NCBI GenBank assembly: GCA_016184225.1
Contig: JACPDA010000004.1
Coordinates: forward strand, 538,763 to 602,762
DNA: 64,000 bases
From: Candidatus Daviesbacteria bacterium
GTDB taxonomy: Bacteria > Patescibacteriota > Microgenomatia > Daviesbacterales > UBA10151
Direction of reading: 5' to 3'
Positions 12,334-13,171 of the stretch are shown piece by piece; positions within the stretch are counted from its first letter, which is position 1, and the number at the start of each line of letters is the position of its first letter. A model generated the notes under the pieces. That model worked only from the letters and a program-made list of their open reading frames with translations. It was not told where the DNA came from and made no database searches. The translations under genes were made by a program, and so were the position numbers.

Positions 12334-12960
12334 CTATACTTTCTCTAAACTTGTTTTTAAAGCTTGGGCAAGAAGACTTTCTAACATAATAGAATCATAA
12401 TTATCTGCTGCCTGCATAGCTCCAACATATTTATCCCTATCTTTTCCTGTCTCAGCTTTGATAGTTATTATGGGGAATCCTAAATTAAGAAGCAGAAGGT
12501 TAGTGAGCAAACGAGCAACTCTACCGTTATAGTCATTAAATGGATGAATCCAGACAAAACGATGTTGAAACCAAGCTAAAAGTGATATAAGTTCTGCTAA
12601 GAATAGTTCCTCACTTTGAGTTGGAGATAAATGTTTTAGTCTTTCTGCAAGATCATCACAAAGATTTTGTACAAGTTCAGGAACTCTACTAAAATATGGC
12701 GGTTCATATTCTCCAACAGTTACATCAATCTTTCTAAATTTTCCTGCCCAATCCGGAAATATAAAGCCGAAGCCTTCTTTGTGAAGATCTAAAATGATTT
12801 GAGGAGATATTTTAACTCTTTTATTACTGAGTTTAATGATATGTTGTTGAGCCTTTTTAATGCCTTTAGCCTCAAGCTTAATAAGTTCTGAGCGTGGTAA
12901 TATTCCAAAAGCGGTTTCTTTAAAACTTGTTGTAGATTTAGGTTTAGTAGATTTAGCCAC
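12334..12960 (-). CDS. Fic/DOC family protein (candidate FicT toxin)
   Basis: Fic motif variant HPFNDYNGRVAR (canonical HPFx[DE]GNGRxxR with G replaced by Y). GTG start inferred by the ORF tracker. Confidence 0.6.
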   Translation of the reverse strand: MAKSTKPKSTTSFKETAFGILPRSELIKLEAKGIKKAQQHIIKLSNKRVKISPQIILDLHKEGFGFIFPDWAGKFRKIDVTVGEYEPPYFSRVPELVQNLCDDLAERLKHLSPTQSEELFLAELISLLAWFQHRFVWIHPFNDYNGRVARLLTNLLLLNLGFPIITIKAETGKDRDKYVGAMQAADNYDSIMLESLLAQALKTSLEKV

Positions 12961-12985
12961 AGCACAATTGTAGCACAGTGCTTAG

Positions 12986-13171
12986 CTAAAAAAGAGATCG
13001 TACCTGTTTTCGAGAAATCTTCTCCCCTTCAAGACGCATAGTATGATAAATATCTTCAGGAAGAAGACTGGTTACATCTGGCTTTTTACGCATATTAAGA
13101 TAGCGTTTCCTAAAAGTTTTAAACGCTTGAATAAGACCTATATTTTTATTTACTAATTGAATCCTAGTCAT
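12986..13171 (-). CDS. Small ORF upstream of Fic carrying the (S/T)xxxE(G/N) inhibitory-helix motif (candidate FicA antitoxin, or a split N-terminus of Fic)
   Basis: 61-aa ORF containing TMRLEG (TxxxEG), 25 nt upstream of the Fic gene in a different frame. Confidence 0.4.
   Translation of the reverse strand: MTRIQLVNKNIGLIQAFKTFRKRYLNMRKKPDVTSLLPEDIYHTMRLEGEKISRKQVRSLF

Follow-up and report, generated by a model that had tools for sequence, protein, structure and literature searches.

A Fic-domain enzyme and its small upstream partner kept as separate genes across candidate phyla radiation bacteria

A two-gene Fic module in a Daviesbacteria contig

The stretch of DNA analysed here (the window, 64,000 nucleotides (nt) of contig JACPDA010000004.1 from a Candidatus Daviesbacteria bacterium) encodes on its minus strand a Fic-domain protein of 208 amino acids (aa) and, upstream of it, a 61-aa protein that contains the sequence TMRLEG. 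Both open reading frames (ORFs) lie where the original prediction, made from the sequence alone, had placed them; they are 25 nt apart and in different reading frames, with the small ORF upstream (Table 1). The database record identical to the larger protein is titled "Fic family protein [Candidatus Daviesbacteria bacterium]", and the small protein is a "hypothetical protein" there. To these existing annotations our analysis adds that the small gene can be annotated as a candidate cognate inhibitory subunit. The two-gene module is real and is kept across many bacteria of the candidate phyla radiation (CPR).

The three classes of Fic proteins differ only in where their inhibitory helix is encoded, and a change of layout has so far been inferred, not seen. 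Class I is defined by an inhibition motif that lies on a separate small protein encoded upstream (PMC3667792; PMC5033356). The module described here has this class I layout, yet it aligns from end to end with class II enzymes resembling FICD, and for this reason the family appears to document a stable split (or a pre-fusion state) of a FICD-type enzyme.

Two genes rather than one broken gene

Could the two ORFs be the halves of a single class II Fic gene that a recent frameshift or a sequencing error has broken, so that the module would be a pseudogene or an artefact? This was the alternative offered by the original prediction, and the difference in frame, the short spacer and the colinearity of the pair with class II FICD-like proteins all speak for it. 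It fails on the sequence between the genes: three-frame translations place in TTAGCTAA a TAG in the small-ORF frame and a TAA in the Fic frame, and because both frames are stopped, no single-base correction or single indel can fuse the ORFs.

It fails equally on comparison. For this we assembled 11 occurrences of the module found through exact-protein look-up, together with 36 genome loci; about 38 distinct loci have upstream sequence. The genome loci belong to the CPR/Patescibacteria, among them Daviesbacteria, Curtissbacteria, Levybacteria, Amesbacteria, Collierbacteria, Parcubacteria, Nealsonbacteria, Minisyncoccales and Saccharibacteria; a literature search on Fic proteins in the CPR found nothing specific. 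In every related locus with upstream DNA, a small ORF of the same strand immediately precedes the Fic gene; this includes L031, an apparent exception that on inspection has a 71-aa upstream ORF. The genes are thus separate in all of the approximately 38 distinct related pairs, with a gap that ranges from -4 nt (an overlap) to +40 nt and with all three relative frames represented. Homologues of the small protein number 43 and are 49-82 aa long (all but one 61-82 aa), none of them fused to a Fic domain; on the Fic side, of 780 homologues the 120 best listed are nearly all about 208 aa long (206-218). Both genes are under purifying selection, the median pairwise dN/dS being 0.18 in the small ORF and 0.09 in Fic, and across 31 pairs the identities of the two proteins diverge together (Mantel r=0.91, 0/999 permutations). 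Taken on these sequence comparisons, the frameshift reading is refuted, and we leave it practically no probability. We also considered stop-codon readthrough or programmed frameshifting as a route to a fusion protein, and this was ruled out, as the frame relation varies among loci and both frames are stopped.

Several "binchicken"/TPA metagenome bins that contain the module are titled "uncultured Gammaproteobacteria" or "Woesearchaeota" (L013, L014, L017-L020, L022, L024, L026, L032 and L043). These titles are probably placeholder or wrong labels.

Class I by layout, class II by descent

The Fic assignment of the larger protein in the original prediction holds: it matches the Pfam family Fic (PF02661) over residues 51-157 with 60 bits against a cutoff of 24 (E=4.2e-16). 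The catalytic set is complete, with His139, Asp143, Asn145, Arg147 and Arg150 as well as the flap. Its best sequence and fold matches are class II proteins of the FICD/HYPE type, a group that includes human FICD, C. elegans FIC-1 and bacterial relatives with SNAIEG or TVGIEG. Human FICD is the closest solved relative by sequence (E=4.5e-18) and also by fold (Foldseek E=3e-10, rmsd 1.7-2.7 Å), FIC-1 comes second by fold, and the class I toxins EcFicT, VbhT and Fic-1 are placed below both. The window protein shares with the FICD type the flap and all catalytic residues except one Gly, and differs from FICD in having Tyr where the FICD loop HPFIDGNGR has that Gly; the pair also has neither TPR nor membrane segments. 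Another family of similar length is TIGR02613, "mobile mystery protein B", which aligns over residues 21-193 but scores 66.1 bits, far under the NCBIfam cutoff of 124.4, and the window protein is not a member. The partner of TIGR02613, the helix–turn–helix "mystery protein A", differs from the partner in the window.

When the Fic protein alone is aligned with FICD, the alignment begins directly after the FICD inhibitory helix. When the two window proteins are concatenated, it extends back through DIYHTMRLEGEKISRKQVRSLF, and the T/E/G motif of the small protein comes to lie opposite FICD IYHTVAIEG. A profile comparison of the 31 concatenated pairs with 13 bacterial class II FICD-like proteins (hhalign) gives a probability of 100% and E=1e-39, with an alignment that is continuous from residue 27 of the small protein to the Fic C-terminus. 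In this alignment T44, E48 and G49 fall, with high posterior confidence, on the class II [S/T], E and G (consensus YhsnaIEGN), and a 15-residue insertion lies exactly at the gene split. The motif that the original prediction had read in TMRLEG, (S/T)xxxE(G/N), is therefore present, and its residues are invariant in the 31 pairs: the small protein's invariant columns are T44, L47, E48, G49 and E50 and no others, with P38 nearly so, while pairwise identity of this protein falls to 20%. Because the motif and the Tyr of the active-site loop are invariant in the family while the small protein drifts this far, we do not consider either of them a chance match.

The layout is that of class I, with [S/T]xxxE[G/N] on a separate small protein encoded immediately upstream; the class II layout is absent, as the window and all related loci with upstream DNA have the helix motif and the Fic core on separate ORFs. 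The homology is that of class II, since core plus inhibitory segment align by hhalign, by phmmer to FICD and by Foldseek. The original prediction of a class I pair is thus upheld in its layout, while the choice that it posed between class I and a split class II gene turns out not to be a true alternative, the pair being homologous to class II through the inhibitory helix. Given the in-register, colinear profile alignment with class II proteins, the pair is class I by layout and class II (FICD-like) by descent, and by these alignments it is an old, maintained separation of the inhibitory segment from a FICD-type core. What distinguishes it from the FICD type is that the helix motif is on its own 61-aa polypeptide and that the insertion, in the form of the tail KSTKPKSxTS, stands at the split. 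Within the Fic protein we also looked for a cis class II motif or a C-terminal class III motif; the candidates TSFKET and SIMLES, which lack the G/N and are not conserved as such, were rejected.

The tail itself (Fic residues 3-12; 12925-12954, minus strand) is nearly invariant across the family, with T5, P7 and T11 fully so. Such conservation is unusual for a linker that is an insertion relative to class II proteins. The tail may be a modification site or a docking segment.

Table 1. Positions of the genes, motifs, expression signals and repeats at the Fic module (window coordinates)
Feature	Position	Strand	Remarks
Fic-domain protein gene	12334..12960	-	208 aa, GTG start; FICD-like core, flap VTVGEYEPP, catalytic loop
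Small ORF	12986..13171	-	61 aa, ATG start; basic (pI 10.8); candidate trans-acting inhibitory-helix subunit/antitoxin
Active-site loop HPFNDYNGRVAR	12511..12546	-	Fic residues 139-150; H139, D143, Y144, N145, G146, R147, R150
TMRLEG	13025..13042	-	small-protein residues 44-49; fits [S/T]xxxE[G/N] (T44, E48, G49)
Intergenic spacer	12961..12985	-	25 nt, small ORF to Fic; adjoins TTAGCTAA (12982-12989)
Extended -10-like element TGCTATAAT	13178..13186	-	ends 6 nt ahead of the small-ORF ATG
Second -10-like element TGCTACAAT	12967..12975	-	in the spacer, 6 nt ahead of the Fic GTG
68-nt direct repeat D2, upstream copy	13194..13261		67/68 nt identical to 12238-12305
68-nt direct repeat D2, downstream copy	12238..12305		overlaps the end of the 147-nt repeat D1
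147-nt direct repeat D1	12093-12239 and 14047-14193	direct	146/147 identical

An aromatic residue in the active-site loop

Compared with the canonical AMPylating Fic signature HxFx[D/E]GNGRxxR, the loop HPFNDYNGRVAR keeps every position except the sixth, where Tyr144 (12529-12531) stands in for the first Gly. The original prediction had rightly noticed a Tyr in place of a Gly, and had taken the replaced residue for the second Gly when it is the first (position 6 of HPFx[DE]GNGRxxR). The signature is incomplete in this one residue only. Tyr144 is invariant in both family alignments (15/15 and 31/31 members), as are the loop residues H, P, F, D, N, G, R and R.

For a census of this position we searched 1.84 billion representative proteins and read the motifs in the best 150, where 69 carry an aromatic residue (19 Tyr and 50 Phe). 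A cis inhibitory motif is present in none of these 69, whereas the canonical-Gly class II relatives in the same census carry [S/T]xxIEG about 133 residues upstream of the loop. Many of the Phe-type proteins (HPFxDFNGR) are long fusions with restriction-modification-like or helicase-like (DEAD) N-termini. A literature search for a Fic loop of the DYNGR/DFNGR form found no mention of it, the only matches being unrelated acronyms. An invariant Tyr or Phe where known AMPylators have Gly offers Fic enzymologists a concrete variant.

Does the aromatic residue change the reaction? Two Fic-fold proteins with a different chemistry, Doc (a kinase) and AnkX (a phosphocholine transferase), both have a non-Gly residue, Ala, at this position; Doc further has Lys for the second Gly, and AnkX lacks R2. 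The first loop Gly is thus replaced in all three proteins, but the residue in the window protein is a bulky Tyr, and the second Gly, R1 and R2 are all retained there. Tyr144 in the phosphate-binding loop may alter the donor substrate or the chemistry.

Taken further, the invariant aromatic residue in the phosphate nest would have repurposed the fold for another donor or reaction, and the enzyme would not be an AMPylase at all. The invariance of Tyr144, the size of the Tyr/Phe clade among the nearest representatives and the absence of such a loop from the papers searched are in line with this idea, and EcFicT, a class I toxin-like protein, shows that ATP binding can be lost through a degenerate motif (PMC5033356). 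Against it, the remaining residues of AMPylation (H, D, N, the second G, R1 and R2) are intact, and the inhibitory motif, which acts by competition with the ATP gamma-phosphate, is kept and invariant. We consider a non-AMPylating enzyme rather unlikely.

A bolder combination would see in HPFxD[Y/F]NGRxxR a large, undescribed Fic branch in which an aromatic side chain in the phosphate nest has changed the donor or the reaction, with the ancestral FICD-type helix detached into a leaderless-translated small protein; the module would then be a mobile on/off switch for protein modification in the CPR, with a new chemistry or target. We offer this as a speculation that is unlikely to hold.

A number of Phe-type relatives (P0173, P0179, P0190, P0192, P0203, P0215, P0227 and P0311, among others; see also L050, 1309-1482) have disordered N-terminal extensions, in which HG[V/I/L]R[G/R]xxG recurs about 35 residues ahead of the Fic core. 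The small ORF upstream of the Tyr-type protein P0164 has CVRGQDG, which resembles it. This recurrent sequence may be an alternative regulatory segment.

Proposed control of the enzyme in trans

The reading that we prefer, at a probability of about 0.7 and by analogy with characterized Fic systems, is that a detached inhibitory helix of the FICD type controls a Fic enzyme in trans. The 208-aa product would be a Fic-fold enzyme of the FICD-like lineage, and the 61-aa product would supply in trans the T44-x-x-x-E48-G49 that class II proteins carry in their own N-terminus. Inhibition of Fic proteins works through the pairing of a Glu with the second Arg (R2) of the loop (PMC3667792; PMC5033356). 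In the window pair, binding of the small protein to the enzyme would let Glu48 pair with Arg150, as suggested by VbhA/VbhT, EcFicA/EcFicT, AntF/Fic-1 and FICD E234; this pairing would force ATP into a non-productive pose and switch AMP transfer off. The complex may also run de-AMPylation, an activity that has been reported for the class I complex Fic-1-AntF (PMC13327609). Were the small protein lost or in short supply, the transferase would be set free.

The known class I FicTA pairs, VbhT/VbhA, EcFicT/EcFicA (YhfG) and Fic-1/AntF, are alike in layout, with an upstream protein of about 60 aa and a Fic protein of about 200 aa, and [S/T]xRLEG is common to VbhA (SQRLEG), EcFicA (SRRLEG) and the small protein of the window (TMRLEG). 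Their mode of action is the one that we would expect, by analogy, for the window pair (PMC3667792, PMC5033356, PMC13327609). Their Fic cores are only distantly related to that of the window (E=1e-4 to 1e-5) and rank lower by Foldseek.

Several observations weigh against control by a detached helix. The small protein has no significant match among solved (PDB) proteins, either as a single sequence or as a profile. With VbhA, whose sequence we checked against PDB 3SHG/3ZC7, hhalign gives a probability of 0.3% and aligns only the ten motif residues (HTMRLEGEKI with ASQRLEGLEP); the small protein is for this reason not a detectable member of the VbhA/FicA family. Its match to Pfam DUF4172 stays under threshold (17.5 vs 25 bits), and 4 of 24 members show it. 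In VbhA and EcFicA the motif stands at the end of the first helix, whereas here it is close to the C-terminus of a protein that is very basic. In the 71-aa upstream ORF of L031 the motif reads TTKIEE, with the final G/N replaced by E. Three outgroup upstream ORFs were inspected, one Phe-type and two Tyr-type: one Tyr-type ORF has TTKIEH, with H as the last residue, and the other, that of P0164, lacks the motif. The AlphaFold2 (AF2) model of the concatenated pair built with Fic homologue rows only has residues 30-71, including TMRLEG, at a predicted local distance difference test (pLDDT) score below 50 and non-helical, in a segment that had no alignment rows. Finally, a bulky Tyr in the anion nest could block normal ATP binding entirely.

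The mean pLDDT of the same model is 83, with the Fic part above 90 and residues 3-28 of the small protein forming a helix at 73-84; from the single sequence the concatenated pair reaches a pLDDT of 36.6. The in-register alignment with class II proteins speaks indirectly for a helix that would insert into the active site. Also in favour of control in trans, the Phe-type outgroup, a 200-aa Fic protein in a different gene neighbourhood, is preceded by a 78-aa ORF that overlaps the Fic start and contains SMTFEGEPVT.

The match to TxxxEG could instead be coincidental, in which case the small protein might serve as a nucleic-acid-binding autoregulator, as a targeting subunit or in some other role. 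Its pI of 10.8 with a very basic N-terminal half, the lack of detectable similarity to VbhA or to solved proteins, and a confident AF2 helix at residues 3-28 alone would suit such a role. A coincidence would leave two things to be explained, namely that the motif residues alone are invariant while the remainder drifts, and that the motif aligns in register with the inhibitory helix of class II proteins, immediately ahead of the point where the Fic homology starts. We find a coincidence quite improbable.

Expression signals

Among 32 distinct related loci, 25 have TA[TC]AAT ending 5-8 nt ahead of the ATG of the small ORF, compared with 3 of 46 control ORFs of the window. The form conserved across loci is TGnTA[TC]AAT, an extended -10-like element represented in the window by TGCTATAAT, and a Shine-Dalgarno sequence is absent. 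A sigma-70 scan, which requires a -35 hexamer, did not flag the element; it was the comparison of loci that revealed the extended -10. Because the element ends about 6 nt before the ATG, the mRNA of the small ORF is predicted to be leaderless or nearly so.

The second -10-like element, TGCTACAAT, belongs to a pattern TGnTA[C/G]AAT-N6-GTG that precedes the Fic gene in the Daviesbacteria-type subgroup (L001, L005, L011, L018, L021, L025 and L026). In other subgroups the stop of the small ORF overlaps or abuts the Fic start. This second element would permit transcription of Fic without the small gene.

A probably mobile accessory module beside a tRNA gene

The neighbours of the module differ in every genome, and one copy adjoins VirD4/TraG-like and Replic_Relax genes. 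The GC content of the module is 34.1% against 41.8% for the window, which places it in the lowest 2% of windows. These features fit a self-contained, horizontally mobile accessory module, judged from sequence context. Accessory modules that are clearly mobile and widely shared are few in the very small genomes of the CPR, and this would be one of them. Of the traits of a type II toxin-antitoxin module, the pair shows the two-gene layout and the mobile-type context.

This context bears on another reading, in which the pair is no toxin-antitoxin or addiction module but a non-toxic, FICD-like reversible switch, an obligate complex that mainly removes AMP from a housekeeping target, or alternates there between its addition and removal. 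The closest relatives, FICD and FIC-1, are bifunctional AMPylase/de-AMPylases that depend on the inhibitory Glu, the class I complex mentioned above is a de-AMPylase, and the family is strongly conserved (dN/dS 0.09 for Fic) and widespread in reduced CPR genomes. However, a mobile accessory module fits better than a housekeeping gene, because the neighbourhoods vary by genome, the GC content is low, a tRNA gene adjoins the module and one copy is on a conjugative-type element. We regard the switch as possible but doubtful.

The mobile context is also compatible with a role in defence, as an abortive-infection or anti-phage module triggered by phage-induced depletion of the small protein. A profile search gives a full-length match of the Fic protein to the PADLOC candidate PDC-S04 (PDLC04839, E=5.2e-32, 13-203 of 205) and a match to SoFic (E=5e-18), and the Phe-type relatives include the fusions with restriction-modification-like and helicase-like N-termini. 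PDC-S04 is, however, a candidate that lacks experimental verification and gave no defence in one native-host test; it is a single gene, and SoFic is a class II protein with its helix in cis, where the window module has two genes. No other defence genes adjoin the module in the 11 neighbourhoods examined for gene content, and among the matches listed in a scan of viral contigs there are two 31%-identical relatives and none that is close. A defence function is unlikely in our estimation.

The original prediction had further described direct repeats of about 66 nt as flanking a mobile cassette. The repeats exist (D2, 68 nt), but they do not look like the ends of a cassette. In L001, the closest relative, whose module is 86% identical, there is one 93%-identical D2 copy at 5253-5315 and none upstream; this copy does not bound the module, as it lies about 620 nt downstream of it, ahead of an HTH_23 gene, with tRNA-Asp about 85 nt from the module. 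The window itself has a third, partial copy at 11593-11630. The D2 core, read on the minus strand, is TTGTTGCAAAGTTTTGTAyTGGTATATTAAACTCTGATATAGGTGTTC, and it is 93% identical in L001, another Daviesbacteria genome, where the flanking genes are only 65-86% identical. Each copy in the window stands upstream of a minus-strand gene, and that of L001 is likewise upstream of a gene on the same strand. D2 may act as a promoter or operator, or it may be a small mobile element; an Rfam scan of the repeats gave no match.

The first 17 nt of the longer repeat, D1, copy the 3' end of tRNA-Asp (14189-14262, minus strand). This 17-mer, GCGGGGCCGACGGGAAT, occurs three times, at 12094, 14048 and 14189, and the sequence found after the tRNA in L001 (ATAGGCAC) stands after the second copy in the window. 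The D1 and 17-mer copies, with the Fic module between them, suggest remnants of insertions at the tRNA 3' end; we noted no integrase gene in the part examined. Compared with L001, the window is about 1 kb longer from the tRNA to the module, and the region is rearranged.

Between the module and the tRNA lie two overlapping plus-strand ORFs, 13291-13587 and 13559-14023 (98 and 154 aa), which seem to be a single gene that a +1 frameshift has split. Their Pfam matches, to families of the ChaN/Tiki/TraB type, are weak and sub-threshold, and about 1 kb is missing at the equivalent place in L001. Their sequence INDSH resembles the GExH motif.

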